From Bdellovibrionales bacterium (GTDB taxonomy: Bacteria; Bdellovibrionota; Bdellovibrionia; Bdellovibrionales; UBA1609), in the NCBI GenBank assembly GCA_050246815.1, contig JBFWVI010000008.1:10747-74746 (forward strand): 64,000 nt of DNA, in the 5' to 3' direction. Below, in pieces: positions 22,379 through 55,757 of this stretch. Both the position numbers and the translations under genes were made by a program. The notes under the pieces are model-generated. The model was not told the DNA's origin and did not search any database. It saw only the letters and a list, made by a program, of their open reading frames with translations. Numbering within the stretch: position 1 is the first letter of the stretch; each line of letters begins with the position of its first letter.

Positions 22379-22750
22379 ATGAATGTAAAAAGTTTGACTC
22401 CCAATTTAAGCGCGCTAGACCCTCGACTTCGCACCGAGGCCAAAGACAATGTGCGCCTGCAAAACAGCGGCGACCGCGATGCGGATGGCCGTCGGCAGCA
22501 GAATGAGCCTGAACACAAGCGCCACTTGAACGAATCCGAGTTTGAAACAGCCTTGGAAACCTTAAAGAAAAACGCCGCCGTTACCGCTCACAACCTACAG
22601 ATTCGAGTTGAACAACATGAAGATCACCGGGTCATCTTCATCGAGGATCGGGCCGGGCAAGTGATTCGCCGTCTGTCAGAGGCCGACTTGTGGCTGGTCA
22701 CTCGAGAAAATGATCGTCCCACGGGAAAAATTTTAGATAAAGCCGGCTAG
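22379..22750 (+). CDS. flaG: FlaG-like flagellar protein
   Basis: Position between fliC and fliD; I.D..G.VIRR motif. Confidence 0.65.
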   Translation: MNVKSLTPNLSALDPRLRTEAKDNVRLQNSGDRDADGRRQQNEPEHKRHLNESEFETALETLKKNAAVTAHNLQIRVEQHEDHRVIFIEDRAGQVIRRLSEADLWLVTRENDRPTGKILDKAG

Positions 22751-22877
22751 TACTACGCGCGCCTTAAGTCCTGTCACCATGCCGCCGCATCACGAATGTC
22801 CAAGCCAACTAATTGACTCACGTTTTTCCTCTTAAATCGGTGAAACTAGAAGGGTACAAGCGCCGGAGGATGCTCGC

Positions 22878-24248: not shown

Positions 24249-24261
24249 TGAAGGAATAGAT

Positions 24262-24288
24262 TAAGTACCGAAATGAAACGGCCGATAG
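24262..24288 (+). promoter_or_regulatory. Sigma28 promoter upstream of fliS
   Basis: TAAG-N15-GCCGATAG. Confidence 0.7.
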
Positions 24289-24327
24289 AAATAGGTCTAA
24301 GTTTTGAAAAGGTGATGAGCTAAGATT

Positions 24328-24720
24328 ATGAAAAACGCGTATCAGAAATACAAAGAAACCTCGGTTCAAAGCGCAGGCCGCGAAAAGTTGCTTTTGATGC
24401 TCTACGAAGGCGCTATTCGCTTCACCAAGAAAGCCATCCTGGCCTGTGATCAAAAGGACATCGCTGAACGCGGCATGAATATCGGCAAATCTTACGACAT
24501 CATCATGGAGCTGAACAATACGCTGAATCACGAAGTCGGCGGCGAAATTTCAAAAAATCTTGAGCAGCTTTACATGTTCATGACGGATCGGTTGACCAAA
24601 GCGAATGTGACGGGCCAAAAAGCGCACCTTGAAGAGGTCCTTAAGCTTCTCGAAACTTTGTATTCGGGATGGGTCGAAGCCGTCGAAAAATTAAAACGAG
24701 ACGAAAACACCAAGCCTTAA
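24328..24720 (+). CDS. fliS: Flagellin export chaperone
   Basis: AY..Y...SV.SA..EKLLLMLYEGA and GGEIS.NL..LY motifs. Confidence 0.93.
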   Translation: MKNAYQKYKETSVQSAGREKLLLMLYEGAIRFTKKAILACDQKDIAERGMNIGKSYDIIMELNNTLNHEVGGEISKNLEQLYMFMTDRLTKANVTGQKAHLEEVLKLLETLYSGWVEAVEKLKRDENTKP

Positions 24721-24743
24721 GCCAGCATCACCACGGAGGGACC

Positions 24744-25169
24744 ATGGAAAATATTATTGGATTGCTTCAAGATAAAAATTTTCACTTGCAGCGCTTCTAT
24801 GAAATGAACGAAACCGAACTGATGAATTTCGTTGAAGGCAATTTTGACAATCTTGAAGGGTTTTACAACACCCGTGAGGCAATTTTGGACCTTATCCGTT
24901 GCATAGACCGGTTGGTCGAACAGGCCAATCTGGCGCTGGTGGAGCCTGTGTTGATTTCAAATGAACACAAGAATGCCGTGGCGCAAGCATTGACGCGCAA
25001 AAATGAAATCGTAACAAAAATTTTGGGGCAAGATCTGCAAATACTTTCAGTTCTTGAAACAGCCAAATCCAATATCATAAAAGAATTGTCACAGGTGAAG
25101 ACTGTGCGCAAAGCCGTGCGGGCTTACAAAAGTACAGGTACCGAGCCTCGCCTAGACGAAGAGGCCTAG
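24744..25169 (+). CDS. Flagellar chaperone-like helical protein (FliT/FlgN-like by position)
   Basis: RBS GGAGGG, ATG 24744; follows fliS; C-terminal AV.AY. Confidence 0.55.
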   Translation: MENIIGLLQDKNFHLQRFYEMNETELMNFVEGNFDNLEGFYNTREAILDLIRCIDRLVEQANLALVEPVLISNEHKNAVAQALTRKNEIVTKILGQDLQILSVLETAKSNIIKELSQVKTVRKAVRAYKSTGTEPRLDEEA

Positions 25170-25283
25170 TCGACACGGCTTGCTAATAACTTGATCAAGC
25201 CAGTTTCATGACGCTCGACTGAACCTCAAGTCAAAGAACCGTCGTCGAGACCCTTACTGCACCCAATCTGTTTCATTTCAGCC

Positions 25284-25299
25284 TGGCACCGGAGTTGCT
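25284..25299 (+). promoter_or_regulatory. Sigma54 promoter of the TPR-GT9 operon
   Basis: TGGCAC-cggag-TTGCT, consensus -24/-12. Confidence 0.75.
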
Positions 25300-25328
25300 C
25301 TTCATCAATCCGAAGAGAGGACCCGACC

Positions 25329-26402
25329 ATGCTAGGACTTCAGTCGCAGAATACTCCCACGACCCGACTTCCGCACAGTGCCGATCCACCCAAGGCGGCG
25401 GACTTGCACAAGGCCTTGAAAAATTTCGCCCATGATCATGGCGTAACAGAATTCGGCAATGAAGAAAGCGCGCGCTATTTTCATGCGGCCAAGCTTTTGA
25501 TGCAACACCAAGAGTTTTATCCCGCTCAGAAACTGCTTCGCCAAGTGCTCAGCGTATCGCCCCATTCTTCGGCTACGGTTTATGCCTTGGCGGAATGCGC
25601 GGGGCACCTGGGCCAAAAAGCTGAGCGTCTGCAGTTGCTCAAAGCTTTGATCACATTGGATGATCATCCGCATTACCTTTTAACGCTGGCGCAAACGTTT
25701 TACGAACAGGGTTCGGATCAAGAGGCACTCAAGTATTACCTGCAAGCTGTCCACCTGTTGCCCGAAGATGCGGGTTCGCTCTTTGAGGCGTACAAAAATA
25801 TCGGAAACATCTACGTTCGGTGCCACGATTTTGAATCGGCCGAAGAAAACTACAATCGTGCCCACACACTCAACCCTCGCTCCGCCACGTTACTGGTGAA
25901 CTTTGGCACTTTAGCCATTCAGCGCAATGACTGGGATGGGGCCATCCAACGTTTTCGCGAGGCCATTGCGGTGGACGCATCCTTCGATCGCGCATGGGTC
26001 GGCCTGTCACTGGTTCATAGGCAGTTCGGAGATTTTGATTTGAGCTGGGCAAACTTGGCGCGCGCATTGGATCTAAACCCGCTGAATACGACAGCGCTGC
26101 AGTTGGCTTTGAGCTGGGTTGTGAAAGACCAGCGCTGGGCCCTGGTCAGCGAAAGCCTCAAGCAATATATGGTGTTGAACGATCAAGATGCAGTGATGAG
26201 TTTGGCTTTGGCGCAACTTTGGTTTTTGCAAGGCCATTTTGCGTCCGCACGTTTGGAATTGACTCGCACTTTGGCATTGGATCCCGCGATTCAGGGCGGT
26301 TTGGATCTATTGAACTTGATCGAGCAAGAAGAAATGAAGAGGTCCCATGGATGGGATGAACACGGTGCCGAGTTTGGAGAAAATCACAGCCAAGAACGGT
26401 GA
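25329..26402 (+). CDS. Tetratricopeptide repeat protein
   Basis: Several TPR units, e.g. AYKNIGNIY...A...Y..A..LNP. Confidence 0.85.
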   Translation: MLGLQSQNTPTTRLPHSADPPKAADLHKALKNFAHDHGVTEFGNEESARYFHAAKLLMQHQEFYPAQKLLRQVLSVSPHSSATVYALAECAGHLGQKAERLQLLKALITLDDHPHYLLTLAQTFYEQGSDQEALKYYLQAVHLLPEDAGSLFEAYKNIGNIYVRCHDFESAEENYNRAHTLNPRSATLLVNFGTLAIQRNDWDGAIQRFREAIAVDASFDRAWVGLSLVHRQFGDFDLSWANLARALDLNPLNTTALQLALSWVVKDQRWALVSESLKQYMVLNDQDAVMSLALAQLWFLQGHFASARLELTRTLALDPAIQGGLDLLNLIEQEEMKRSHGWDEHGAEFGENHSQER

Positions 26403-27003
26403 TGTGGTTTTAAAATACAGGGGGCGTTTGCTGGCTTCTGCCATAGACCCTCGACGTGAGGCCCGCGATTGGATCAATCGTTGGCGCTTGCGCATTGCGG
26501 TTGCGGAGCGCCTGGTGATTTTGGGCGCCGGAGCCGGCTTTCATATCGACGAAGTCGTGCGCGAATGGCCCGCCTTGCGCGTTTTGGTGATTTGTTGCGA
26601 GCCTGAAGTTTTCGCGGAAATGGCAAAACAACAAGCTGCGGCTTGGCCTCTGGTGGACCTGGTACTTTATGAAGGGCACGGCGACCTTTTATCCAACCCC
26701 AAAGTGCGCCATTGGATGCGCGGCTACTTCACACTACTTGAACATTCTTCGCTCAGCAATCTGCAGACGGCTCTTTATCAAGAGTGCAAAGCGCGTCTTT
26801 TGGCTCGTGAGCCGTTGTTTTTCAGCGACTGGGTCAGGCGCGAGCCGCGTCTTAGCCAACTGTTTCCGCTGCAGGCCATACCGGGGGGCGAAAACCGCCA
26901 AATGCTTTCGATTAAGGATCTTGAAAAATTCGTCAATGTTCGTGCCGATGCGAACCCTGCGGATGTGATGATTGTGCGTGCCTTAAGAGAGTTGGTGCGA
27001 TGA
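26347..27003 (+). CDS. Protein resembling the N-terminal domain of motility-associated factor (Maf)
   Basis: LAS..DP.REA..W and VILGAGAGFHI motifs; no C-terminal Maf catalytic domain. Confidence 0.5.
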   Translation: MDGMNTVPSLEKITAKNGDVVLKYRGRLLASAIDPRREARDWINRWRLRIAVAERLVILGAGAGFHIDEVVREWPALRVLVICCEPEVFAEMAKQQAAAWPLVDLVLYEGHGDLLSNPKVRHWMRGYFTLLEHSSLSNLQTALYQECKARLLAREPLFFSDWVRREPRLSQLFPLQAIPGGENRQMLSIKDLEKFVNVRADANPADVMIVRALRELVR

Positions 27004-28556
27004 AAATTTTGGTCGTCAGCCTGCTGAGGTTAGGGGATGTGTTTCTGGCGGCGCCAGCGTTGGCCGGGATCAAGCGGCGCTATCCCGATGCCGAGCTTCA
27101 TCTTTTGGTGAACCGTCAGGCGGCCGGCGCCATCTCATTGTTGGGGATGGTCGACCGCTGGCACATCTTTGAGCGCGACCTGTTGCAGCAAGGTCTGACC
27201 GATGCCGAAAGTCCGATCTTGGAACCTTTTTATCGCCTTGAAGGCCAGCTGCAAAAATTAAGAGGTTACGATTTCGATATGGTTCTAAATTTTACACACA
27301 ACCGTCTGAGCGGTTGGTTGTGCGGCATCATTGGGGCGCGACAAACCATCGGTTTGGCTTTGGACAGTCAGGGCCGTCCGCGTTTTGGCTCGAACTGGTT
27401 TCAGTTTTTGAATGACAGGGCCGAAGAGCGCGGTCGCGAGATTTTTCATTACTCAGATGTATTTTGGTTTGGCGGCGGGATGGATCGTGAAGCACGCCAC
27501 TGGCGCTGGCAGCTGCCAGCGCAGGCCAAAGTCGAAGCAGACGCGTTGCTTCAGGGCAAAACAGGTTTTATCGCCTTGCAACCCCTGACCAGTGAAAGCA
27601 AAAAAGAATGGGGCTCCGAGCACTGGGTGCAGGCCTTGCAAATGATGCAGCAGACTCGTCCACAAAGCGAGTTTGTGATTTTGGGGGCACCCAATGAGCG
27701 TGAGCGCTGCGAAGTTCTGTTGACGTCACTACGTGAAAAGGGTGTTCGTGCGATCGTCGCCATATGCTCGTTGGGCACGGCAGTTGAAATTTTAAGCCGC
27801 GCCGAAATGCTTTTGACCGGTGACACCAGCATCAAACACTTGGCCGCGGCGTTGCCTTTAAAAGTGATCGAGATCAGCTTGGGCAGCAGTGACTGGCGAC
27901 GCACGGGCATTTACAAATCGGGTGCTTACATCGTACAGGCCCGAGTTCCCTGCGCGCCGTGCCCACACTCATTGCCTTGCAGCGAATCCTTTCACCGGTG
28001 CGGCGCAATTTTGCCGCCAGATTTCATTGCGAAATTCGGTCTTGCCGTTTTAGGCGGCGAGCCCCAGCAAATTCAAGATTTAGCGCGTGCATATGCGGGG
28101 GCTTGCGAAATTTATCAAACAAGTTTCAGCGGTGGCGGATATTGGCAGTGTTTGCCGGTGGGGCGCGCGGTGCAATCGCGCGACTTGCGTATGTGGCTGG
28201 ACAAATTGACAACCAAGCTTTTGTTGCAGGGTGAACATTTGCAAGCTTTGGGCGCATACGGCACCGAAGCTATGCGTATGGGTGAATGGATGCGAAAAGA
28301 ATTTCCGCATTTTTCGACCAATGGCTGGCAAGAATTGATCCGTCATTTGGAAGGCGATGATCAGATGCACCAGTTCAGCGCGCAGAATGCGCAAAAAAAA
28401 TTGACGCAAATGATGCAGGCCACGCGCTCTCAGTCCACCGTGCAACTCAAAGAGATGCGTGTGCTGCAGGCAAAAGTCGAAGACATCAGCCGTCGCATAG
28501 AGATTCGTCATCGGCTGGTGCGCTCATTAAGAAACATCGTGGAGGGAACTTTATGA
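27000..28556 (+). CDS. Glycosyltransferase family 9 (heptosyltransferase-like), C-terminally extended
   Basis: MKILVVSLLRLGDV...P....IKRRYP, K.W, LTGDT...HLAAA and C.PC motifs. Confidence 0.85.
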   Translation: MKILVVSLLRLGDVFLAAPALAGIKRRYPDAELHLLVNRQAAGAISLLGMVDRWHIFERDLLQQGLTDAESPILEPFYRLEGQLQKLRGYDFDMVLNFTHNRLSGWLCGIIGARQTIGLALDSQGRPRFGSNWFQFLNDRAEERGREIFHYSDVFWFGGGMDREARHWRWQLPAQAKVEADALLQGKTGFIALQPLTSESKKEWGSEHWVQALQMMQQTRPQSEFVILGAPNERERCEVLLTSLREKGVRAIVAICSLGTAVEILSRAEMLLTGDTSIKHLAAALPLKVIEISLGSSDWRRTGIYKSGAYIVQARVPCAPCPHSLPCSESFHRCGAILPPDFIAKFGLAVLGGEPQQIQDLARAYAGACEIYQTSFSGGGYWQCLPVGRAVQSRDLRMWLDKLTTKLLLQGEHLQALGAYGTEAMRMGEWMRKEFPHFSTNGWQELIRHLEGDDQMHQFSAQNAQKKLTQMMQATRSQSTVQLKEMRVLQAKVEDISRRIEIRHRLVRSLRNIVEGTL

Positions 28557-28735
28557 AAAAAGAAACAGAGGTCCATTTACGTCGAATCCTGCAAAGGCTC
28601 GAGCAAGCAACGGACAAACTGTTGAGCACGCGCGGCTACGCTCAGGATACGGCTCGTGTTCGGCTACTACAAGAATTAATCAAGGAGCAGATCAATCATG
28701 CGGATTCTAGTTCTACAACTCGCTCGGTTCGGTGA
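28553..28735 (+). CDS. Small helical hypothetical protein
   Basis: RBS GGAGGG; ATGA coupling to the upstream GT9. Confidence 0.45.
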   Translation: MKKETEVHLRRILQRLEQATDKLLSTRGYAQDTARVRLLQELIKEQINHADSSSTTRSVR

Positions 28736-30179
28736 TATTTTCATCACCTGGCCCACGCTGAGGGCTTTGCGGCGCCGCTATCCTGGCGCCGAAATCCATT
28801 TGGTCGTGCGCCAGCGCTTCAGAGCGGCGGCTGGCGACTGCGAAGCGATTGATAAGCTTTGGTGTTTAGACACGGCTCAAATATTGGAACCCCTGTTGAC
28901 CGATCAAGGCGATGTGGACGTGAGTTTGGTGCGCTTGACAGAGTGGACCGAGCTCTTGTCTGAACAGGATTTTGATTTGGTGATCAACCTTTCGTTTTCG
29001 CCGTTTTCAAGTTATCTGACGTCGCTAGTGAGTCACGGTAATGCCGTTGTGCGCGGCTACACGCGCTATAGCGATGGCTTTTTGGCCATACCGGATGACA
29101 CCAGTGCCTACTTTTATGCCCAAGTTGGTGTGGGCCTGAGTAATCGCTACCATTTAGCCGAAGTATTTGCAGCCGTGGCTGATGTCGAATTAAGTGGCGC
29201 CGATTGGAATTTGCCCATGACTTGGCATGCGCAAGAGCGGTTGGTCGGCTGGCAGGAAAAGCAGCCCGAGTTGGCGGGCGATTACATTTTGTTTCACTTG
29301 GGCGCCAGCCAAGCCGAAAAAATTTATCCGGCCTTCAAATGGCACCGGGTGATTTTGGAGCTGCAGCGCCGTTGGCCTGCGCAAATCGTTTTGATCGGCA
29401 GTGCCAGCGAGCAAAACATGGCCGAAGCCGTGCTTGGGGCCGGCGGCTGTGGAAGTGTTTTGAACTTAGTTGGCAAAACTGATTTTTCAGATGTGGGGGC
29501 GTTGATCGCAGGAGCGCAGGTGCTGATCGGGGCCGATAGCGCACCGATGCATCTGGCCGGATTTACCGCCACGCCGTGCCTGAATTTGTCTTTCGCCGCC
29601 GTCAATTTTTGGGAAACCGGACCACGTACTTTGGGCAGTCGAATTTTGGTCGCGGACTCACCCGCTGATTTGCCCTCAGATCGAGTGGTCGCCGAAATTT
29701 TAGCCATGTTGAAGAATCAAAGCAGTCAACGCCCGGTGGTTTATCGCCGATCTCACCAGCCGGTGGGTTACGAATGGCAGGTGGCCGAAGATAACAATCA
29801 ATCTTGGCGTATGATTCAAGCCATTTATTCAGGTGGCGAGTGGCCCGAGGTGCACGACCCCATCATTGTCAAGGCGCTGTGGCAAATGCGCGAAGCGGTG
29901 AATGTGGCGATCACGCAAATCCCGAACTTGCGGAATGTTGAAAAACGGCGTCTTGCCAACGGACTCATCGAGCAAGCCGATTTGGCTATTTATGCTTTAC
30001 GTCGCGTGGTGCCCGAACTTCGGCCTCTGGTTTCTTGGTTCGAAACCGAGCGCTTGCGTTTGGGTCCCATGGATCTCGAGTCGCTGATTGCGCGCACCGG
30101 GGATATCTATGGCCAGCTGCTTGGAGTTTTAAATCTTTATTTGCTACCGATCGATCAACAACGGGAGGCTGAACCATGA
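28698..30179 (+). CDS. Glycosyltransferase family 9 (heptosyltransferase-like), second copy
   Basis: MRILVLQLARFGD...P...LRRRYP, HLGAS..K, NLVGKT, GADSAPMHLA and ETGP motifs. Confidence 0.87.
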   Translation: MRILVLQLARFGDIFITWPTLRALRRRYPGAEIHLVVRQRFRAAAGDCEAIDKLWCLDTAQILEPLLTDQGDVDVSLVRLTEWTELLSEQDFDLVINLSFSPFSSYLTSLVSHGNAVVRGYTRYSDGFLAIPDDTSAYFYAQVGVGLSNRYHLAEVFAAVADVELSGADWNLPMTWHAQERLVGWQEKQPELAGDYILFHLGASQAEKIYPAFKWHRVILELQRRWPAQIVLIGSASEQNMAEAVLGAGGCGSVLNLVGKTDFSDVGALIAGAQVLIGADSAPMHLAGFTATPCLNLSFAAVNFWETGPRTLGSRILVADSPADLPSDRVVAEILAMLKNQSSQRPVVYRRSHQPVGYEWQVAEDNNQSWRMIQAIYSGGEWPEVHDPIIVKALWQMREAVNVAITQIPNLRNVEKRRLANGLIEQADLAIYALRRVVPELRPLVSWFETERLRLGPMDLESLIARTGDIYGQLLGVLNLYLLPIDQQREAEP

Positions 30180-46505: not shown

Positions 46506-47168
46506 ATGAACTCTTTGCTTAAGTCGGTCGGCAAGATTTTCCTGTTGGTCCAAATAGGCGTTGCGGCCGGCTGCAAGTCCAGCCCCGGCCCAGACGAACC
46601 CGCGCCCTCGGTCCAGGTGCGCGAGCAGCTCGAGACTGAGATTTCGTTGAAGGCAGACCGCGAGAGCCTGGCCGAGTTGCGTAAAGAAGTTCCCGAGCAA
46701 AAACGCCAAGCCAATGACGAGCTGGCTTTGGTGCTGCAACTGATGGGTGAAGTGAAGTTGAACCCGTCTGAGGTGCAGAGCCGCTATCAGCGGGCCATGC
46801 AAAAGCGCCGCGCCGAATTCCGCGACAAAGTCCGTCAATTGCGCGAGACCTATCGCCGTGAAGAAGCCAAGCGCAAAGCCCATTTTTTAGATCAACAAAA
46901 ACAATCACGTGAAGATTTTAAAAGCCAGAGCGCCAAACGTGAGCAGGTTCGTGAATTTTATTCGGGCCAGGATCGCGAGCGCCAGCACTTCTTTGCGGGC
47001 GAGCGCGACCGTCGCAAGGACTTCGAAAGCGAAATCGACACACAAAGTAAGGATTTCGATTCCTACATGCGCGAAAAGCAAAAAGAATTTTTAGAGCAGC
47101 ATAGACTCTATTCAAAACGCTTTCGCGAAGCGCCGACCACCTTGGCCCCGCAGGGAACCGGTCAATAA
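46506..47168 (+). CDS. Charged coiled-coil lipoprotein
   Basis: Lipobox-like AAGC; R/E/K-rich helix. Confidence 0.65.
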   Translation: MNSLLKSVGKIFLLVQIGVAAGCKSSPGPDEPAPSVQVREQLETEISLKADRESLAELRKEVPEQKRQANDELALVLQLMGEVKLNPSEVQSRYQRAMQKRRAEFRDKVRQLRETYRREEAKRKAHFLDQQKQSREDFKSQSAKREQVREFYSGQDRERQHFFAGERDRRKDFESEIDTQSKDFDSYMREKQKEFLEQHRLYSKRFREAPTTLAPQGTGQ

Positions 47169-48472
47169 CTTTTTTGCCAGGTATGGCGGTGGCTGTCGAC
47201 ATGCAGCTTCGCGCCCAGGCGCTGAAAGACAACTCCTAAGCCCAATAGAGTTCGATGCACCAGGGTCAGGCCCGTGCTGAAGTTCTGCAGCTGGGGATTG
47301 AATAGCTGCTGCGAAAATATCTCATGGCCCCGTCGTACAAAATCAGGTTGAGTCTTGAAATCAAAGCTTTCCTGTGCCAGCAAGGTTTGAATCCAGTCCA
47401 AATAGGGCTCGACCGCTTGCTCCAGCAGCTGGCGGTTTTGTTCAACGCCGCCGGGGGCCACTTGCATGCCGCGCTTTTCATATTGCTCAAGCAGCGGCGT
47501 ACGATCATCTCCTTTCGAAGTTCGCCACAGTTGAGTATAGAAGGTGACGTCTTCTTGAGGGATTATTTTGACCGCGCCGAAGTCGATCACGGCAATACGG
47601 TCGTCTTCGGTGATTAGGAAATTGCCTAAGTTGGGGTCCACATGCAGGCGCTGCCACTGAAACACGCTGCGAGTGAAAAAGCTGAATAAAGTGTTGGCCA
47701 CTTTGTCGATGCGGTCTTGCGAAGGGTGGCTGAGCAACCACTGATCTAAATGCTGGCCCGATACAAAATCCATGGTCAAAACGGTTGGGCAGGTCAGATC
47801 GGCGTGGACTTGGGGGATGAACATGGTGGGTGGCAATGTCTGTGCGCGAAACCAATTTGAATGTTCTTGCTCGACCATGTAGTCGACTTCTTGGCGCAGG
47901 CGATCTTGCAATTCGTCCAGGATGTTGATCAGCAGGCCGGTGTTTGCAAAGGGCTTTAAAAGTTTACGGGCCAAGGCGAAGTCATTGACGATACTTTCGT
48001 TCATACCGGGGTATTGCACTTTGACGGCCACCCAGGTGCCGTTTTTAAGTTTTGCCCGGTGAACTTGGCCCAGGCTGGCTGCGGCCAGGGCGTCGGCTTC
48101 GAATTCAGCAAACACCAAAAGGGGATCTTGCCCCAGCTCGCGGCGTAAAACCGTGCGCACCAGCGCGGCAGAAAGCGGCGACACTTTGTATTGCGCCTGC
48201 TCGAACACTTTCATGTACTCTTCGGGCAGCAATCCGGTTTCGCCGCAAAAGAGTTGCGCCAGCTTCAATGCTGTACCACGCAATTGGCTTAAGCCTTCAA
48301 AGATCATCTGCGCGATTTCAAGATTTGTGCGCTGCCTTAATGTTTGTTTGTCTTCGGGTTTTAGGAACACCGATTTGACACCGCTCGAGATTTTTTTGCT
48401 CGCGACACGGCCGGCCACTTTGCCAATTACTTTGCTGCGAGCGAGAGATGTTTTAGGGGGACTTTTTGCCAT
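47162..48472 (-). CDS. ABC1/AarF/UbiB family atypical kinase
   Basis: LRG..LK.AQ, AAASLGQVH.A, VAVKVQYPG, E.DY..E, H.DP..GNF and DFG motifs. Confidence 0.92.
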   Translation of the reverse strand: MAKSPPKTSLARSKVIGKVAGRVASKKISSGVKSVFLKPEDKQTLRQRTNLEIAQMIFEGLSQLRGTALKLAQLFCGETGLLPEEYMKVFEQAQYKVSPLSAALVRTVLRRELGQDPLLVFAEFEADALAAASLGQVHRAKLKNGTWVAVKVQYPGMNESIVNDFALARKLLKPFANTGLLINILDELQDRLRQEVDYMVEQEHSNWFRAQTLPPTMFIPQVHADLTCPTVLTMDFVSGQHLDQWLLSHPSQDRIDKVANTLFSFFTRSVFQWQRLHVDPNLGNFLITEDDRIAVIDFGAVKIIPQEDVTFYTQLWRTSKGDDRTPLLEQYEKRGMQVAPGGVEQNRQLLEQAVEPYLDWIQTLLAQESFDFKTQPDFVRRGHEIFSQQLFNPQLQNFSTGLTLVHRTLLGLGVVFQRLGAKLHVDSHRHTWQKSY

Positions 48473-48545: not shown

Positions 48546-48785
48546 ATGGATCAGATTAAAACCTTCGTCGAAGATCAGATGCGTCATGTTTTGGAGCAGC
48601 AAACACTGCCCCTGAACGAAGAGACGATTTTGACCGGCTTGCCGGGCTGGGATTCGGTCAAAATGCTCAGCTTGCTTGTGACAATCGAAAAGAAATTCAA
48701 GGTGACTTTTCACGCCCGCGAAGTGACCAACCTCAAAACTCACGGCGAACTGTTGCGTTTGGTCGCTGCCAAGATGGCCCAATGA
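48546..48785 (+). CDS. Acyl carrier protein
   Basis: 79 aa; GWDSV phosphopantetheinylation motif; IE..F.V.F. Confidence 0.85.
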   Translation: MDQIKTFVEDQMRHVLEQQTLPLNEETILTGLPGWDSVKMLSLLVTIEKKFKVTFHAREVTNLKTHGELLRLVAAKMAQ

Positions 48786-50689
48786 ATGCCGAAAAGATTT
48801 TAAACACGGCTTTTTTGATCCGCCGGACCGAAGAAAAACTTCTGGAGCTGTTCACCCAAGGCAAGGTGCATGGCACGATTCACACCTGTGTCGGTCAAGA
48901 GATGGTCGGAGCTTGTCTGGCCGAACACTTAAGCGCGAGCGACTACGTGTTTTCGAACCATCGCGGCCACGGCCATTATTTGGCGGTCACCGGGGATTTG
49001 CCCGGGATGTTGGGTGAGCTACTGGGTCGAGGTATGGGTGTTGCGGGCGGCGTCGGTGGCAGTCAGCATTTGCAAAAGGGCCGCTTTTTTTCAAATGGTA
49101 TTCAAGGCGGTATCGTGCCTTTGGCTGCCGGAGCCGCATGGGGAGCCAAGCTGGAAGGTAAAAAATCCATTGCTGTGGTTCTCGTAGGGGATGGCACTTT
49201 GGGTCAGGGTGCGATTTATGAGACCATGAATCTGAGTGCACGTTGGCAATTGCCACTTTTGATTGTGAACGAAGACAATGGCTACGCTCAATCGACCAGC
49301 AAGCAGGAAACTTTTGCCGGCGATTTGAGGGCAAGAGTGCAGGGCTTTGGGTGCAGTTATGCCCAGGGTGACACCTGGGACTGGCCAACGCTGCACCAAA
49401 TTTTTGCGGATCAGATCCAGGCGCTACGCGCTGGCGGGCCGCCGTGCTTCATCGCGGTTCGCACCTATCGGTTGAAGGCACACTCAAAGGGCGACGATTT
49501 ACGTGATCCGCAGGAGGTCAAAAGGTACTTTGACCTGGATCCATTGCAAAAACTATTGAGTGCAAAGGATGCTGTGGCTTTGCATGCCGATCAAAAAGCC
49601 AGCAACGAAATTGAAAAACAAATTCAGAAAGTTTTAGCCGCCCCCGTCGCACAGCCACCGGCACTGGCGGCTTATCAAACACCAAAGTGGTTTCCTTGGA
49701 AATCTGGCCCAGAGGGGCTGTATGTTGAGGCTTTAGCCGAAGCCTTTCAGCAGGTTCTGGCCAACCATCCTCAAGTTTTGTTTATTGGCGAGGATGTGCA
49801 GGACCCTTACGGCGGATGTTTCAAGGCCAGCAAGGGCTTAAGCAGCCGGCAAGCTCAGCGTGTGCGCAACACGCCCATCTCTGAAGCCGCGATCAGCGGG
49901 GTGGGCACCGGTGTCGCTTTGGCGGGGTATCCGTGTTTTGTCGAGTATATGTTTGGCGATTTTTCGGCCTTGGCTTTCGACCAGATCGTCAATCATGCGG
50001 CAAAGTTCGATCAGATGTATCCCGGCGTGAAGGCCCAAGTGATATTCAGAACCCCCATGGGGGGCGGGCAAGGGTATGGCCCCACCCACAGTCAAAATTT
50101 AGAAAAACATTTTTTGGGCGTTCCGGGTCTGCAAGTTTATGCGATGAACGCCATGGTGGATCCTCGTCTTTTCTTGGATGATCTTGTCAAAAGACAGTCG
50201 GGGCCCGTCTTGCTGATTGAAAATAAAAAGCTTTATTTGCAAAAGACCGTGGCCAGCATCGATTCGATGTGGCAAGTGCAAACGCAAAAAGACAGCTGGA
50301 ACGTCCGCTTAAAGCCCAAGGCGGGCCCAGCGCAGGTGAATCTGGTGGGGCATGGAGCCTATGCCACGATCCTAATGAATGCCGCAAAGACGCTCTTCGT
50401 AGAACACGAAATTTTGTGCAGCTTGTTTATCGCCACGCGCTTGTCAGATTTTGATTTGCGCGAGGAATTGCAGGAATGGCTGGGAACGCCCGTCCATTTG
50501 CTGTTTGAAGAGGGCCAGGGTTACGCCAGTTTTTCAGCTGAAGTTGCGGCGCAGTTGGCCGAATACGGCGTCAAGGCGAGACGGTGGTTTCCGCCCGCAC
50601 GCGTGGTGCCGTCGGCGCCGTCACTTGAATCTGAATTTCGCTTAAGCGAGGCCAAAGTGATCGCGGAATGTCTTGAGGTGTTGCAGTGA
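48782..50689 (+). CDS. Fused ThDP-dependent E1 alpha/beta (2-oxoacid dehydrogenase / transketolase-like)
   Basis: HTCVGQE, HRGHGH, GDG...N ThDP motif, YRL.AHS; beta half GEDV, NTPISE, DQIVN.AAK, GPTHSQ. Confidence 0.9.
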   Translation: MNAEKILNTAFLIRRTEEKLLELFTQGKVHGTIHTCVGQEMVGACLAEHLSASDYVFSNHRGHGHYLAVTGDLPGMLGELLGRGMGVAGGVGGSQHLQKGRFFSNGIQGGIVPLAAGAAWGAKLEGKKSIAVVLVGDGTLGQGAIYETMNLSARWQLPLLIVNEDNGYAQSTSKQETFAGDLRARVQGFGCSYAQGDTWDWPTLHQIFADQIQALRAGGPPCFIAVRTYRLKAHSKGDDLRDPQEVKRYFDLDPLQKLLSAKDAVALHADQKASNEIEKQIQKVLAAPVAQPPALAAYQTPKWFPWKSGPEGLYVEALAEAFQQVLANHPQVLFIGEDVQDPYGGCFKASKGLSSRQAQRVRNTPISEAAISGVGTGVALAGYPCFVEYMFGDFSALAFDQIVNHAAKFDQMYPGVKAQVIFRTPMGGGQGYGPTHSQNLEKHFLGVPGLQVYAMNAMVDPRLFLDDLVKRQSGPVLLIENKKLYLQKTVASIDSMWQVQTQKDSWNVRLKPKAGPAQVNLVGHGAYATILMNAAKTLFVEHEILCSLFIATRLSDFDLREELQEWLGTPVHLLFEEGQGYASFSAEVAAQLAEYGVKARRWFPPARVVPSAPSLESEFRLSEAKVIAECLEVLQ

Positions 50690-51699
50690 ACAAACCGCTG
50701 ACGGTCCCACGTTTGAATCCGAACGACAACGAAGTCGAATTGGCAGTTTGGCACAAAAAGACCGGTGATAAAATTTCGGTGGGGGATCCCATCTGCGATT
50801 TTGCGACCACCAAGGCGGCCTTTATTTTTGAAGCTGAGAGTGAAGGTTATCTGAAGCAAAAGGCGGCAAAATCGGCGCGCTTAAGCGTCGGGGATGTGTT
50901 TGCCGAAATTTGCGCAAGTGTCGAAGAGGCCCAAAAAGTCGACGTCAAGCCGGCGGCTGCCGCATCAATCGCCACGACATTCACCCGCAAAGCGCTGCAG
51001 AAAATGCGGGAGCTGGGTTTGAGCCGTGATGACTTTCAAAATCACGCCTTCGTCACAGAAAAAACTGTGCTTGAAAGGACCAAGGGCGGTGCCGGCGGTT
51101 TGTCGATCTTGAAAGAAGCCGAGATCGCCGCTTTGAATATGAGTGGAGCAGCCTTGCGCAGCTCTTTGACAATGTTGGCGTCTGCCAAAACTTTGAAAGA
51201 CATTTCGAGCCGTACCAATGTGTCGGTTCAAGCCTATATAGCCTGGGCGACGGCTCAGACACTTCAAGAAAAAGCGCGCTTTTTGAACCGCTTTCCCGCA
51301 AGCGAGTCCACCAAAACATCCGTGGATCTGGGCTACGCTTTGGACATGGGCACGGGGACGCGCTCATTCTTGGCTAAAGACTGCCAAACATGGAGCGCAG
51401 AGCGCTGGGGCGAGCAGGTGGTGGATTGGGGTATGCGTTTATTGCGCAATCAAATCCGTCTTGAAGAGCTGGGCTCGGGGGATTTCACGCTGACCGATTT
51501 AAGCAGCGAAGGGATTTTTTCGTTTGAACCACTGTTGGTGGCCGGACAGTCGGCGATTTTAGGGGTGGCGGGTGAGCTGGGCGGGGGTGAGCCGCGTGTT
51601 TCGCTGACTCTGTCTTTTGATCACCGAGTGCACGACGGGCGGCAGGCGGCGCAGTTTTTAAAGGCAATGAGGGCAAAAATTGAAAATCCCCAGTCTTAA
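50686..51699 (+). CDS. E2-like lipoyl-domain acyltransferase
   Basis: Lipoyl domain (W.K..GD....GD.I...TTKA...EA...G), degenerate binding domain, catalytic SFDHRVHDG. Confidence 0.85.
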   Translation: MNKPLTVPRLNPNDNEVELAVWHKKTGDKISVGDPICDFATTKAAFIFEAESEGYLKQKAAKSARLSVGDVFAEICASVEEAQKVDVKPAAAASIATTFTRKALQKMRELGLSRDDFQNHAFVTEKTVLERTKGGAGGLSILKEAEIAALNMSGAALRSSLTMLASAKTLKDISSRTNVSVQAYIAWATAQTLQEKARFLNRFPASESTKTSVDLGYALDMGTGTRSFLAKDCQTWSAERWGEQVVDWGMRLLRNQIRLEELGSGDFTLTDLSSEGIFSFEPLLVAGQSAILGVAGELGGGEPRVSLTLSFDHRVHDGRQAAQFLKAMRAKIENPQS

Positions 51700-52813
51700 A
51701 TTTTCATTTGTTTATTTTTCGTCATTTGTGGCGGTCTTGTTTGTGGTGAAGATCTTGCTGCAGGTGCTGGAGCCATTCAATGGCACTAACAACATGTGGA
51801 CCAAGGATCGCATCCGTCAGTCTTTGCGGGCGCTTGACCAGTGTTTACGCCAGCCGCCTGGGTCAGGTGTCGTGCTTTTTTTAGGAACCTCGGAAATTGA
51901 AGTCGGTTTTGACCCGCGAATCTTTGATCGAACTTTAAATCGTTCGACTGAAACGCTCAACTTGGCCGTGCGCAATGTGGGTAATTTCATGCCGCTTTAT
52001 TTGGCCCGGGTGCGCCAGGAATTTTTAAAACATTCGGCCAAAGCAGATGTGATCTTTCTGCACATGCCAATTTCTAGAATGACAAAGAGGGCGCGCAATT
52101 CGGCATCCGAAGGCAACAAAACGCACGATTTGCCGACGGTCTATTTTGACCAAACCGTAGCTGGAAATTTTGAGGCCAGTGCCTATGAGCTTGGGTTTTT
52201 CTTCTTCAACAAATACTTTTTGGGTGAGCGAAGCTTAAGTCAGATGACTTATTTATTGCGCCGGCCTTTGCGTGGATGGATGGCCCAGCAAGGAGCGGCG
52301 GCAACGGCACGCATTGATCTTTGGAATCGCGCAGACCTGCATCCCCAACCCGCTTGGGAACCCAAGACACGCGGACATTTTTATTGGAACCTCGAAAATG
52401 AGGGTGCGATGTTGCAGGGGGTGTTGCAGGCCATACCGCCAGAAACCGCACTACGCAGTTCGATTGCTTTTCAAAAGACCTGCTGCGATTTTGTCGATTT
52501 AAATATTGATTGGCAGTACGTCGAACAGGTGCGGACTTCTCTGATCAGGCTGAAAGAGGTGACTCGGCATCTGATTTTGATCCATTTGCCTGAACATCCG
52601 GGTTTCAAGCGCAGCGAAGATTCTTTGATCAATATGGCATTGGTGCTTAAGCGTCTGCGCCAAGACACGGGTGTGGAGCTGTGGGAAACACAAATGTATG
52701 AATCTTACGGGCCGGAGCACTTTATTGACGTGGTCCATTTTTCGCCGTTAGGGGTTCGTCACTTCTCGGAAGAGCTGGCGAAATCGGCCATAGACCTTTT
52801 GCCGACGGAATGA
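51680..52813 (+). CDS. Membrane-anchored SGNH-like (DltD/AlgJ-type) acyltransferase
   Basis: N-terminal TM; FLGTS nucleophile block, NLA block, C-terminal FIDVVHFS..G (DxxH). Confidence 0.7.
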   Translation: MKIPSLKFSFVYFSSFVAVLFVVKILLQVLEPFNGTNNMWTKDRIRQSLRALDQCLRQPPGSGVVLFLGTSEIEVGFDPRIFDRTLNRSTETLNLAVRNVGNFMPLYLARVRQEFLKHSAKADVIFLHMPISRMTKRARNSASEGNKTHDLPTVYFDQTVAGNFEASAYELGFFFFNKYFLGERSLSQMTYLLRRPLRGWMAQQGAAATARIDLWNRADLHPQPAWEPKTRGHFYWNLENEGAMLQGVLQAIPPETALRSSIAFQKTCCDFVDLNIDWQYVEQVRTSLIRLKEVTRHLILIHLPEHPGFKRSEDSLINMALVLKRLRQDTGVELWETQMYESYGPEHFIDVVHFSPLGVRHFSEELAKSAIDLLPTE

Positions 52814-52817
52814 CCCT

Positions 52818-54233
52818 TTAGAATTGGAAATATAAGAAGCTTTGGTTGTCGAATTGACCCATGGCCAAAATTAAAACGGTTAAAACCGCATAGGCCAAAC
52901 TGAGCTTACGCCACGACGCCGCAGCGGCCCTGTGCAAATAATCCCTGGCCACGGCATTGACCAACAAGATCAGCAAGCCCACAACCGCCAGCTTGGCTGA
53001 AATCATCACATCTTGCGGCACTCGCAGCGCAAAATCCAGGCTGGTCAAAGCCGAGGCGATTTTGTTCAAGACAAGGCCCGCGCTGTTGACCGATTCCGCG
53101 CGAAAAAAGATCCAACAAAATGTCACTAAATGAAAATTCAAAAGCACCAGGATCGCCGTAGCTGCAGGGCCGCGCAGTTGACTCAGATGGCGATTGAAGA
53201 TTCGGTAAAGGCTATAGATCACGCCGTTGAGCAGGCCCCAAATCAAGAAGGTCCAATTGGCTCCGTGCCAAATTCCCGAAAGTACAAAAACCAAAATGAT
53301 GCCGACATCGGGCCCCCAGCCGGTGGGCCATCGGCGCACAAAGGGGTAATAAACGTATTCAAAGAACCACTGGGACAGGCTGATATGCCAGCGCTTCCAG
53401 AATTCGGGCAGACTTCTGGCCAAATAGGGGCGCTCAAAATTTTGCGTCAGTTGCACGCCAAACAGCAGCGAACTGCCCACAGCGATATCCGTGTAACCGG
53501 AAAAGTCACAATAGATTTGAAACGAGAAAGCATAAACGCCAAGGATCATCGTGAGCGGGGTCTGAGAGGCGGGGTTTGAAAACGCCATATCCACAAGAGG
53601 CGCCAGATTGTCCGCGATGACGATTTTTTTAAATAGGCCCCACAGCAAAATCACCAGGCCGCTGCGGATCTGCGCAAGCGTTGGCGCGTGGATGATATGC
53701 AGTTGTTTTAGCAAAGTCGCCGCCCGTTCGATCGGGCCGGCCACCATTTGTGGGAACCAGGCAATGAACAGGGCAAATTGAAAAAAGCGTCGCTCGGCCT
53801 TTTCAATCTTCAGATAGACGTCGGTGGTGTAGCTCATGGCTTGAAAAGTGTGAAACGAAATTCCGATTGGCAGCACGATGTCGGGTAGCGTGAATTGCGT
53901 GGTCGCCCCTTCCCACGCCAAAAACCAGTTCAGTTCATGGGTTAAAAACAGCAAATATTTGAAGAAGATAAGTGAACCCAGGTTGGCGGCCAACGACATC
54001 AGCCAAACAATCTGGCGCACCCGCGGATTTTTTTGGTTTTCGATCACGATGGCCGCAAAATAGTCGAACACGGTCAGTGCGATGATGACCAAAACGTACT
54101 GAGGCTTCCACGCCATGTAAAACAGGTAGGAAGCGGCCAGCAAAAAGTGCACGCGCCAGCGCGAAGGCAGCGAATAGGTCAAGCCGAAGACGAGGGGCAA
54201 AAAAAACAGAAAGGTTTGGCTGATAAAGCTCAT
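52818..54233 (-). CDS. MBOAT O-acyltransferase (AlgI/DltB-like)
   Basis: LPIGISF.TFQ..SY..DVY, FPQ.VAGPIER, DFSGYTD.A, FW.RWHISLS.W, SG.WHGA and C-terminal FLYFQF motifs. Confidence 0.93.
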   Translation of the reverse strand: MSFISQTFLFFLPLVFGLTYSLPSRWRVHFLLAASYLFYMAWKPQYVLVIIALTVFDYFAAIVIENQKNPRVRQIVWLMSLAANLGSLIFFKYLLFLTHELNWFLAWEGATTQFTLPDIVLPIGISFHTFQAMSYTTDVYLKIEKAERRFFQFALFIAWFPQMVAGPIERAATLLKQLHIIHAPTLAQIRSGLVILLWGLFKKIVIADNLAPLVDMAFSNPASQTPLTMILGVYAFSFQIYCDFSGYTDIAVGSSLLFGVQLTQNFERPYLARSLPEFWKRWHISLSQWFFEYVYYPFVRRWPTGWGPDVGIILVFVLSGIWHGANWTFLIWGLLNGVIYSLYRIFNRHLSQLRGPAATAILVLLNFHLVTFCWIFFRAESVNSAGLVLNKIASALTSLDFALRVPQDVMISAKLAVVGLLILLVNAVARDYLHRAAAASWRKLSLAYAVLTVLILAMGQFDNQSFLYFQF

Positions 54234-54271: not shown

Positions 54272-55012
54272 TTAGTCTTTTTCTTGGTTCAAAAATCGCG
54301 ACTTACGTTGTTTTTGCGAATCACTTAGGTCCGTCATCTGATCGACGGCTTTGATAAAGTGCTCGCGGGCCAGAAAATAAACTAAATCGACCACGCGACT
54401 AAGCAGATTGGACTTTAAGAGCTCGTTCAACAGACCTAAACTTTTGTCTAACATCTGCAATGTGCGGACCGATTTTTTGCTGTCATCGTTCAGCCAATAG
54501 TAGGTCATGCCCAAATGAAAATCCCAAAGCAGTTCACAAAACACTTGGGGGCCGGGTGGTTTGGGGAATTCCTCGACTTCAATGGCGGCATCCAGTAGGC
54601 GACCGACAAATTCAAGATGGAGTTTGCGCTGTTCGGCTAAATAAGTAAAAGAACCAGAAAGAGTGGTCAGAAACAGTTGCTTAAAAGCATCTTGCACGAA
54701 GGTTTTGTGTTTTTCGAATTCCGAAATCTGCGCATCGAATAGCAACTGCAACTGCTCGGTGAAACTTAAAGTTGTGAAGTCGGGCAGGGCCTGCACTTTT
54801 TTGATGGCTTCGCGCAGGCTGGTGGCGAAATACTCCACCAAAAGGTGATCTTTGGTGGGGTAGTACTTGTAGATGACAGGCTCTGAAAGTCCCGCGCGCT
54901 GGGCGATTCGGCGCATGGTGGCCGACTTCAAACCCTCTTCACTCATCAGATCAAGCCCGGCCTGCAGCAGAGCTTGACGGTTGAGTTGTTTTTGTTCGCG
55001 CGAGATTTTCAT
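54272..55012 (-). CDS. TetR/AcrR family transcriptional regulator
   Basis: HTH TMRRIA..AGLS...IY.YYPTK; C-terminal YWL.DDS....T. Confidence 0.9.
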   Translation of the reverse strand: MKISREQKQLNRQALLQAGLDLMSEEGLKSATMRRIAQRAGLSEPVIYKYYPTKDHLLVEYFATSLREAIKKVQALPDFTTLSFTEQLQLLFDAQISEFEKHKTFVQDAFKQLFLTTLSGSFTYLAEQRKLHLEFVGRLLDAAIEVEEFPKPPGPQVFCELLWDFHLGMTYYWLNDDSKKSVRTLQMLDKSLGLLNELLKSNLLSRVVDLVYFLAREHFIKAVDQMTDLSDSQKQRKSRFLNQEKD

Positions 55013-55013
55013 C

Positions 55014-55757
55014 TTATTGTCTTGCCAGCGACATTTGGCCGTTGACGTCCATAATGGTCACGCCTTGTTTTGGCGCGTGATAGTAACCCGAAATGCTGCC
55101 GCCCTCTTTGGTGGCATTGGGCAGCGAGCGCGAAGTGCCGCGGCGAACAAGTAAGGTGGCCGTTCCCTCACGCAGTTTCATCAGCTCAGCGGGCGAAAAA
55201 GTAGCGCGCTGATTCGAGTAGATTGCGCTGGCGTGGCGCGAGGGCTCATTTTGACCTAGGCTTTCTTGTTGCAAACTGACCTCGACGTTTTCATCGGAAC
55301 TTAAACCTTCCACATTCAACTCCACCACATAGGGCTGACGGGCGCTGACGGTGGCGGCGGCCAAGCGCACACCAATGGGTTTTAGGTTCACACTATTGAC
55401 GTAGACCTTTTGGGCGTTGTCGGTCCACTCAAATCTTGCCTCCGGCTGAAATCCGCTGACCGAAGCCCCGTAATAGGTGCCCAACATCCATTTGCCGCTC
55501 ATTTTTTTGCCGTTCGTGGTGACTTGCGAAGGTGAACTCAAAGACAAAGTGGTCCCTGTGAAGCCCCCAGCCCGAAACTGGGCGTAGTACTCGGTGGTGT
55601 TTGAGTCGGCGTAATAATTGACAGAGTAGTTTTGGTAGACGGCTGCGGGGGACACCTCATCGGAGCCCATGGTTTCCACTGAGCAGGCCGTGTTTAAAGC
55701 TGCGCCCAAAAGCACAACAGGGAACAGGATTTTGGTTTTTAAAGAGCTGGTTTTCAT
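55014..55757 (-). CDS. Lipoprotein of unknown function
   Basis: RBS GGAGG; lipobox NTAC; 1 bp from tetR. Confidence 0.75.
   Translation of the reverse strand: MKTSSLKTKILFPVVLLGAALNTACSVETMGSDEVSPAAVYQNYSVNYYADSNTTEYYAQFRAGGFTGTTLSLSSPSQVTTNGKKMSGKWMLGTYYGASVSGFQPEARFEWTDNAQKVYVNSVNLKPIGVRLAAATVSARQPYVVELNVEGLSSDENVEVSLQQESLGQNEPSRHASAIYSNQRATFSPAELMKLREGTATLLVRRGTSRSLPNATKEGGSISGYYHAPKQGVTIMDVNGQMSLARQ

Follow-up and report, generated by a model that had tools for sequence, protein, structure and literature searches.

The window, by which we mean the whole stretch of 64,000 nucleotides that was analysed, comes from a Bdellovibrio-like genome and carries five adjoining genes between positions 48,546 and 54,233 (Table 1). 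The genes for the ACP, E1, E2 and the SGNH protein overlap successively by 4, 4 and 20 nt, and the MBOAT gene converges on the SGNH gene with the two stop codons 4 bp apart. An earlier, sequence-only reading of this DNA had listed these five ORFs with their coordinates, motifs and 4-bp convergence, and had stated that the cassette lacks a DltA-like ligase, FkbH, E3, PKS and NRPS. Both statements were borne out by ORF calls, a motif check and Pfam, which detected none of these five functions among the 12 ORFs scanned (45.8-58.3 kb). The match of the ACP to the Pfam PP-binding model was marginal (21.0 bits, cut-off 20.8); the protein can be aligned with W[DT]S-type ACPs, both from related cassettes and from NRPS-linked loci. 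The MBOAT gene is separated by 39 bp from the TetR gene on the same strand, and the two may have a transcript in common. A promoter and terminator scan gave no excess over shuffles.

Table 1. Genes of the cassette and its two flanks (window positions)
Feature	Positions	Strand	Basis and sites
Stand-alone ACP, 79 aa	48546-48785	+	PF00550; phosphopantetheine site Ser37 (GWDS; WDS motif)
Fused ThDP-dependent E1 alpha/beta, 635 aa	48782-50689	+	Pfam E1_dh + Transket_pyr; NCBIfam; trees; RenH/Qnc-like clade
E2-type lipoyl acyltransferase, 337 aa	50686-51699	+	Biotin_lipoyl + 2-oxoacid_dh; lipoyl Lys43, short linker, catalytic His313
Membrane-anchored SGNH protein, DltD-like fold, 377 aa	51680-52813	+	One N-terminal TM; triad Ser71/Asp350/His353
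MBOAT, 471 aa, AlgI/PatA-length	52818-54233	-	PF03062; His323; C-terminal FxYxxF acyl-shuttle motif (Tyr468)
ABC1/UbiB-family kinase, left flank of insert, outside the system	47162-48472	-	PF03109
TetR (TetR_C_23) regulator, right flank of insert, outside the system	54272-55012	-	

In six of the seven relatives with a TetR match, the TetR gene is followed directly by the ABC1 gene; here the five genes lie between the two. Because a pair that is contiguous in these relatives is interrupted by all five genes, they form one unit, inserted as a single cassette. Contigs of two runs, possibly the source data, span ABC1-ACP-E1 and E1/SGNH-MBOAT-TetR at even depth, and the cassette is therefore unlike an assembly chimera. 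Recent horizontal transfer was considered on the basis of composition and rejected, as there was no signal (GC3 spans 0.55-0.66 across the cassette and 0.56-0.64 across eight genes that flank it). Around the cassette, a search for target-site or terminal repeats returned nothing beyond matches of 7-8 nt.

An opposite-strand joint between positions 50112 and 53406 was also observed in two runs, at 85% likeness and with a shorter side of 43 nt. In the second run its depth did not follow that of the genome, and the site lacks an inverted repeat; the joint probably stems from another organism.

The E1 has a GDG motif at residues 136-138, and its N166 does not vary among 30 aligned relatives; the E2 has a DHRVHDG motif, and a TDLS sequence that replaces the SNLG of two outgroup E2s, as in RenI. 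An identity as housekeeping PDH or BCKDH was rejected. The two proteins do resemble PDH, BCKDH and acetoin dehydrogenase in the E1 alpha/beta fold, the lipoyl domain and the E2 catalytic His, but both fall below all PDH/E2 equivalog cut-offs (NCBIfam), they form separate clades, no E3 adjoins them, and the genome has E2+E3 loci of its own on contigs C11 and C13. The best plasmid match of the E1 is RenH (40% identity, 489 bits), compared with 186 bits for an acetoin dehydrogenase and 195 bits for an E1 annotated as pdhA. In the E1 tree (IQ-TREE, 38 sequences) UFBoot values were 97 for the ingroup and 98 for the node shared with RenH and the NRPS-linked cassettes, and in the E2 tree a clade including RenI (UFBoot 99) stands apart from housekeeping E2s; RenH and RenI are the named clade members in these trees, from which QncN/QncL, NapB/NapD and SclQ sequences are absent. 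This grouping away from PDH and AcoAB, together with the best-match scores, supports the link to Qnc/Nap-type chemistry that had been proposed at the outset. A placement of the E1 as sister of RenH, given by FastTree (0.995; 93 of 97 sequences, 4 truncated ones dropped), was not recovered by IQ-TREE with 38 sequences, and what the sequences indicate is membership of the clade with RenH, not sister status.

QncN/QncL/QncM, NapB/NapD/NapC, RenH/RenI and SclQ1-4 are ThDP/lipoyl cassettes that lead from a ketose to glycolyl-ACP. The tabulated SclQ1-4 genes comprise an ACP-E1alpha-E1beta-E2 set in the same order as in the window (PMC6335953), and RenH and RenI are given the ketose-to-glycolyl step by homology (PMC13249901). 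Like these cassettes, the window has no E3 in the cluster, and its E1 and E2 fall in the clades of RenH and RenI and have signature residues in common with them. T32, Q95, Q108, Y146, Q170, S235, K236, D239, Y343, K348, Y432 and T435 of the E1 signature are kept; the departures are Cys for A346 and Gln for R430. The latter position is Arg in 118 of the 120 top matches, and the Gln could alter the donor of the E1. The known cassettes feed NRPSs, whereas here no NRPS is found among the 12 ORFs scanned, and an MBOAT and an SGNH protein neighbour an E1 with R430Q. Elsewhere in the genome PF00550 has three further matches. From the clade placement, a glycolyl group derived from a ketose phosphate is the leading candidate; the chance that the loaded group would be glycolyl is about even, while some other acyl group is a lesser possibility and acetyl an unlikely one. 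The genome holds no transketolase above the family cut-off.

The SGNH protein, whose TTG start is backed by relatives, had no Pfam or NCBIfam match, ALGX included. Its identity, first called from the motifs GTS (Ser71) and DVVH (Asp350/His353) alone, is supported by a DltD-like fold: the best Foldseek match of the AF2 model (pLDDT 80.6) was DltD (E 1.7e-4), and VIA-align gave Z 13.0 with rmsd 5.0 over 267 aligned residues, tied by another SGNH protein at 12.9. The family numbers 350 members at E≤0.001, and in an alignment of 143 members the triad is nearly invariant (Ser71 141/143, Asp350 137/143, His353 141/143). P0238 is a distant member. Within the phylum a family match was found in 4 of 401 genomes, this one included, and in all three others the gene adjoins an MBOAT, an ACP and an adenylation enzyme, one of these loci (L123) having a convergent layout similar to that of the window. 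The company of an adenylation ligase in these three relatives indicates that E1/E2 fills the ligase slot here.

The MBOAT carries a WHG motif, whose His323 aligns to DltB His336, and a C-terminal FLYFQF. Its best structural match is DltB (E 1.8e-13), and it scores 153.9 against the DltB family model TIGR04091 (cut-off 375). With DltABCD/DltX the cassette has in common a carrier protein, an MBOAT, a DltD-fold SGNH protein and a helix at the carrier-binding site; unlike Dlt, it lies in a Gram-negative host, has E1/E2 in place of the DltA ligase and the Tyr motif on the MBOAT itself instead of a DltX, and its acyl group cannot be an ATP-activated amino acid. A ligase encoded on contig C1 comes with an ACP and an MBOAT of its own. 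In its catalytic His, its C-terminal FxYxxF and its adjoining membrane-anchored SGNH partner, the MBOAT is similar to PatA/PatB, AlgIJX and WssH/I.

Failure of the five genes to co-occur elsewhere had been set beforehand as a condition that would refute the proposed system; all five were found together at L127, L009, L013 and L018. L127 belongs to the same family as the window (orthologous MBOAT, 46% identity; SGNH protein, E 1.5e-61). The MBOATs of the five-gene loci form separate lineages in the tree, which suggests repeated pairing. A single-protein scan of genome contigs returned only 2 loci; the metagenome scan took in 6 of 64 parts and required two motif patterns, which biases the sample behind its counts and makes conservation at these motifs a product of the search.

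What the analysis shows directly is the gene content, the intactness of the catalytic residues, insertion as a single unit, recurrence at other loci, and membership of the clade. Our preferred reading, to which we give a probability of about 0.68, is that in the inserted cassette E1/E2 loads its own ACP with a short acyl group, glycolyl being the most likely one, and that the MBOAT and the SGNH protein pass the acyl group onto a cell-envelope glycan. As its clade suggests, the E1 with its ThDP would cleave a C2 unit off a ketose phosphate and oxidise it onto lipoyl-Lys43 of the E2. On the Qnc/Scl precedent, His313 of the E2 would then move the acyl group to the phosphopantetheine on Ser37 of the ACP, not to CoA. 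An E3, a LipA and a PPTase of the housekeeping kind would act in trans; the genome encodes E3 and LipA, and its PPTase matches are weak. By analogy with DltB and PatA, the docking site of acyl-ACP would be the cytoplasmic helix of the MBOAT, whose His323 would pass the acyl group to Tyr468; transfer across the inner membrane and onto the glycan would then be the joint work of the MBOAT and the DltD-fold SGNH protein.

Tentatively, the acceptor may be nascent surface polysaccharide, the most likely candidate, with peptidoglycan the next. Described MBOAT-SGNH pairs with FxYxxF acylate envelope polymers (PMC12148441), and L018 and L009 sit among polysaccharide genes. The cassette itself contains no glycan genes (neither glycosyltransferase nor flippase), and none adjoin L013 and L127, the latter having a membrane-anchored sulfatase-family gene in its operon. 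These surroundings would also suit the same loading and relay directed at a membrane lipid, a lipoprotein or a small secreted molecule, or an SGNH protein that acts as an esterase releasing or editing the acyl group. The E1-clade members that have been characterised supply small-molecule pathways, and many esterases are found among the fold neighbours of the SGNH protein; however, the Pfam search found no NRPS, PKS or exporter in the cassette, and, with the envelope targets of the described pairs, we give such an acceptor or esterase role an outside chance. A flagellar glycan, also offered by the sequence-only reading as acceptor, found no real support: all that speaks for it is a flagellin beside L127 and flagellar genes in the window at a distance of about 24 kb or more.

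Readings also diverge on the acyl donor of the MBOAT. Non-Dlt MBOAT-SGNH pathways have no carrier protein and are evidently acyl-CoA users (PMC12148441, Discussion; 2025), acetyl-CoA being the substrate of PatA/PatB, AlgIJX and WssH/I. The window MBOAT has the length and motif of PatA/AlgI, its relatives are named AlgI in databases, and the E2 retains the canonical DHR core. The E2 might thus release glycolyl- or acetyl-CoA, or the MBOAT might use acetyl-CoA as PatA and AlgI do, with the ACP as a buffer or in another role. Against this stand the stand-alone ACP at all five loci, the SGNH family that travels with ACP and ligase, and the MBOAT sequence. A tree and diagnostic columns place the MBOAT in a distinct subfamily without the GG loop, and the GG loop and the Arg/Lys of WF[RK]DY, both present in all of the first 20 control MBOATs and typical of ACP-less relatives, are replaced in all 16 members of the window subfamily. 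In counts from loci that are kin, two rows of which were reclassified by hand, a [PS]-x-G-G type loop was present in 48 of 55 control MBOATs, none of the 48 having an ACP within 3 kb; of the seven controls without the loop, four had an ACP nearby and three had none. The loop is absent from the MBOATs of the window and of all four other five-gene loci. Evidence on the other side is that the ACP-linked MBOAT of L018 nests among GG-loop MBOATs in the tree, and that P0238 of the SGNH family is fused to a GG-type MBOAT. The region in its place is helical in the model and aligns to DltB 302-317, which binds DltC (PMC11035591). Both the sequence pattern and the genes around the MBOAT point to ACP rather than CoA as the donor, and we regard a CoA-fed relay as a slim prospect.

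A predicted ACP-MBOAT complex scored 0.33, against 0.00 for the best control, with partner pLDDT of at least 78 and runs that agree in at least 90% of contacts. Of the solved pairs, 116 of 157 attained the mark used for this score, as did 2 of 215 mismatched ones, and at scores ≤0.60 there are only 18 solved pairs beside both mismatches. The score may reflect likeness to the solved DltB-DltC, and the model lends weak support to binding of the ACP by the MBOAT.

That the convergent MBOAT(-SGNH) and ACP-E1-E2 are unrelated units and chance neighbours is very improbable and largely refuted: the MBOAT does lie on the opposite strand, MBOATs of its type are widespread (found in 51 of the 401 phylum genomes) and the E1 clade favours glycan islands, where MBOATs occur too, but all five genes are within one interrupted TetR-ABC1 pair, the SGNH gene overlaps that of the E2 on the same strand, the five genes are on one strand in L009 and L013 and in one direction in L018, and a lipoyl/E2 gene was found at 0 of 55 control MBOAT loci.

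A literature search of openly accessible main texts found no paper describing the combination of a ThDP E1/E2 and an ACP with MBOAT-SGNH, and we regard the cassette as a real new pairing of two known modules. If the ACP-fed relay onto an envelope glycan is correct, it would be a counter-example to the carrier-less, acyl-CoA rule for non-Dlt MBOAT-SGNH systems (PMC12148441) and a third route of donor charging, in which a sugar phosphate or 2-oxoacid is oxidised on a lipoyl arm and no ATP is spent. The cassette would also point to the genes behind an unusual envelope substituent and connect glycan biosynthesis with the enzymes that load glycolyl in tetrahydroisoquinoline antibiotic pathways, and loss of the GG loop might serve as a sequence mark by which to predict ACP-fed MBOATs.

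Against the preferred reading, only 4 of 87 E1-clade loci (4 of 36 long ones) include an MBOAT, most feeding other outputs; in its favour, a sugar-nucleotide or glycosyltransferase-cluster neighbour was found at 47 of the 87 (27 of the 36 of at least 10 kb). A broader and more speculative reading, against which we would lay the odds, is that this E1/E2 clade, known only from antibiotic NRPS clusters, mainly supplies glycolyl groups for bacterial surface glycans through interchangeable outputs: an ACP to MBOAT-SGNH, an ACP-PPTase fusion, or a lipoyl arm fused to a NeuD/PglD acyltransferase. The cassette would then perform ATP- and CoA-independent O-glycolylation of envelope polymers, and E1/E2, FkbH and adenylation ligases would be swappable loaders for GG-less, ACP-reading MBOATs.

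Three further co-occurrences of E1 and MBOAT may be indicated indirectly. Three top E1 matches and top MBOAT matches have identical longest-contig sizes (123,459; 27,487; 12,488), the last of which is also common to the SGNH match P0005.

The sequence-only reading had described an operon of ACP, fused E1, E2 and SGNH genes converging on an MBOAT gene; the sequence does contain all five open reading frames, with the overlaps and the 4-bp gap at the convergence, along with each of the motifs listed. Pfam searches confirmed the fused E1 alpha/beta, the lipoyl-E2 and the MBOAT, and gave a marginal match for the ACP. The fourth gene had no family match in Pfam or NCBIfam searches; its SGNH identity was borne out by a structural model (pLDDT 80.6) whose best match was DltD, and its Ser/Asp/His residues were near-invariant across 143 relatives. 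Metagenome contigs bridged the cassette junctions at even depth, and DNA of the window was present in landfill metagenome runs. Contigs of two runs, of 85% likeness, displayed an opposite-strand joint (50112/53406), which probably comes from another organism.

Among 201 genomes searched, seven others had a match to the TetR gene: in six it directly adjoined the ABC1 kinase gene, and in the seventh it was broken. This adjacency indicates that the ACP, E1, E2, SGNH and opposite-strand MBOAT genes together fill a gap absent from the relatives. The kinase, parted from its regulator by the cassette, is divergent from the ACP gene, with 73 bp between them. The E1 was rare and patchy, being found in 6/401 genomes of the phylum and 4/384 of the order (self included) and in none of the three same-genus genomes searched; composition gave no sign of a recent transfer.

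Co-occurrence of all five functions elsewhere, proposed as a check on the system, was indeed observed: seven further genomes have this E1, and the set was complete in three of them (loci L009, L013 and L127), as well as in a metagenome locus (L018). In L009, L013 and L018 the SGNH protein was recognised by a TM segment at the N-terminus together with a GSS motif and a C-terminal His, with weak profile support in the first two (E about 1e-4) and none in L018. The MBOAT and SGNH of L127 are close orthologues of those in the window. Sixteen sequences, that of L127 among them, make up the subfamily defined by the window MBOAT (FastTree 1.0); it also takes in, as an indirect link, three proteins whose longest contigs exactly equal in size those of top E1 matches. 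MBOATs of the five-gene loci were scattered over different parts of the tree, suggesting that the pairing with E1/E2 arose more than once.

Features and loci discussed in the text (L, loci read for comparison; C, contigs of the window's own genome)
Feature	Location	Arrangement
Lipoprotein-like gene-TetR-ABC1 kinase, conserved trio	window 47162-48472 and 54272-55757	split by the cassette
Five-gene loci	L009, L013	MBOAT-SGNH-ACP-E1-E2, single strand
Five-gene locus	L127	E1-ACP-E2-sulfatase-MBOAT, converging on SGNH
Five-gene locus, metagenome	L018	ACP-E1-E2-MBOAT-SGNH, within polysaccharide cluster
MBOAT locus	L016	MBOAT near E1, E2 and ACP-PPTase gene
Flagellar region	window 14576-30179	
GT9 gene	window 27000-28556	
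Split E1 alpha/beta pair, another type	C63:13610-15543 (L130)	contig end, inside O-antigen-like cluster
Carrier-linked sets	L122:2861-7041, L123:7473-11690, L124:3586-9698, L185, L184, L154	
Second carrier-linked set, same genome	C1:72869-78739 (L129:6870-12740)	AMP-binding ligase, 78-aa ACP, 415-aa protein, very divergent MBOAT, rhodanese protein
Lipoyl-NeuD/PglD fusions, examples	L001:5079-6107, L083:11962-13065, L128:4760-5848	
E2, then AcpS-type PPTase gene	L010:5838-9442, L011, L012, L016, L028, others	
E2-NRPS fusion	L025:11833-17502	single ORF: E2, condensation, adenylation, two PP-binding, thioesterase
Best transketolase-like ORF	C21:20152-22011	

The phylogeny suggested for E1 and E2 set both apart from housekeeping enzymes, alongside Ren-type members. 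In the IQ-TREE analysis of E1, the window protein, RenH of the renieramycin cluster, NRPS-linked cassettes and glycan-linked E1s grouped together (UFBoot 97; 98 at an inner node) to the exclusion of all six outgroups; the E2 tree gave the same pattern (support 99). RenH was the best match of the window E1 among 123 plasmid records (40% identity, 489 bits). Split E1s of actinomycetes and Paenibacillus came next, the two annotated ones adjoining ACP, E2 and NRPS/PKS genes, and acetoin dehydrogenase and pdhA-annotated E1s scored about 190 bits. Outside the motifs used for searching, the window E1 and RenH had a dozen alignment columns in common, which were mostly present in NRPS-linked E1s too and largely missing from the outgroups. 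The window E1 is not sister to RenH, and has Gln where 118/120 matches have Arg.

Published accounts state that QncN/L/M, homologues of SclQ1-4, had been demonstrated to form a C2 glycolyl unit and attach it, with a ketose phosphate as proposed source (PMC6335953), that RenH/RenI were given this step by homology (PMC13249901), and that the same holds for DinS/DinU and NapB/NapD (PMC7570522). As the window E1 falls between such cassette members, glycolyl is the best estimate, the bracket consisting of RenH, one named member assigned by homology, and uncharacterised look-alikes. An argument from economy would also favour glycolyl: for acetyl, which ordinary MBOATs draw from acetyl-CoA, there would seem little need to set aside five genes. 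Given an ACP-fed relay onto a glycan, we put the chances of glycolyl, judged from sequence relationships, at about even. E3, LipA and PGI are encoded outside the cassette in the same genome, and PPTase matches were weak (one over cut-off within a 2,656-aa frame, one stand-alone under cut-off). The genome held no canonical transketolase; the best transketolase-like ORF was highly divergent, far under the TIGR00232 cut-off and devoid of the GPTH motif.

Three lines (SGNH context, loop loss and a predicted complex) point to the ACP feeding the MBOAT. Each of the three other SGNH-family members in the phylum is accompanied by an ACP, an adenylation enzyme (DltA-like in two cases) and an MBOAT; in the window, E1/E2 takes the place of the ligase. 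The controls were MBOATs matched elsewhere in the phylum at E<=1e-75: of 56, all but L009 were read, which left 55. A GG loop ([PS]-x-G-G type) followed the WH-x-S-L helix in 48, none of which had an ACP closer than 3 kb (in one case it lay at 5.2 kb), and four of the seven GG-less controls had an ACP within 1.4 kb, in counts that include short flanks and kindred loci; the loaders, where visible, were a ligase, a ligase fragment or FkbH. The loop is missing in the window, the four other five-gene loci, L016 and L122-L124. The corresponding window segment, modelled as a helix as far as residue 301, aligns with DltB 302-317, the helix that binds DltC (PMC11035591). The predicted ACP-MBOAT complex lent weak support, scoring 0.33 versus 0.00 for the best control; pLDDT of the partner was 78 or higher, and 90% or more of the contacts agreed between runs. 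Of the pairs that reached this mark (116/157 solved, 2/215 mismatched), however, those scoring no more than 0.60 comprised just 18 of the solved and both of the mismatched; the score may stem from likeness to DltB-DltC. Against ACP feeding stand the overall PatA/AlgI-like character of the MBOAT, the three GG-less controls with no ACP nearby, and the fusion of one distant SGNH relative to a GG-type MBOAT. Weighing both sides, we give an ACP-fed relay onto a glycan a probability of roughly two in three.

Dlt-like ligase-ACP-MBOAT-SGNH sets and one FkbH-ACP-MBOAT set, all with GG-less MBOATs, were also seen in this Gram-negative phylum, and a second carrier-linked set lies in the window's own genome.

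By analogy with the PatAB and Dlt relays (PMC12148441), His323 of the MBOAT would serve to move the acyl group from the ACP to Tyr468, and the anchored SGNH protein would hand it onward through Ser71. Glycan genes neighboured 47/87 E1-clade loci and 27/36 of the long ones, clusters being labelled by Pfam matches or recognised N-termini of representatives. This context, together with precedent, favours as acceptor an envelope polysaccharide made elsewhere, for example via the O-antigen-like gene cluster of contig C63, or else peptidoglycan; a lipid or a small molecule is a less likely candidate. The split E1 pair on C63 we take to be possibly a sugar-branching enzyme. A flagellar region in the window includes four or more flagellin-like ORFs, genes recognised by their N-termini as fliD/fliS-like, and two similar glycosyltransferase genes, one confirmed as GT9.

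The cassette resembles Dlt in logic but is without DltA or DltX; it appears to share the loading chemistry of Qnc/Ren/Scl but is without an NRPS, and thus belongs to neither as defined. A literature search (subscription papers and supplements outside its scope) found no paper on the combination of the two modules.

Across the E1 clade, an MBOAT was present in only 4/87 loci. E2 was accompanied by a PPTase or ACP-PPTase gene in 29, by a stand-alone ACP in seven, and stood alone or with an NRPS in six; 24 were truncated or had no lipoyl match. In 21 loci, and in L128, E1 is followed by a fusion of a lipoyl domain with a sugar N-acyltransferase of NeuD/PglD type in place of the E2 core, with TIGR03570 above cut-off in both fusions tested; this architecture suggests that amino sugars may be acylated directly from acyl-lipoyl. 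At a third type of output, the AcpS-type PPTase gene behind E2 often carries an N-terminal ACP, and E2 has a C-terminal Cys-rich extension (two CxxC) in the aligned rows; no acceptor-side transferase was identified at these loci, and in L010-L012 a flavoprotein (Pyr_redox_2) comes next. In L025 the E2-NRPS fusion lies directly behind a fused E1 of the same clade.
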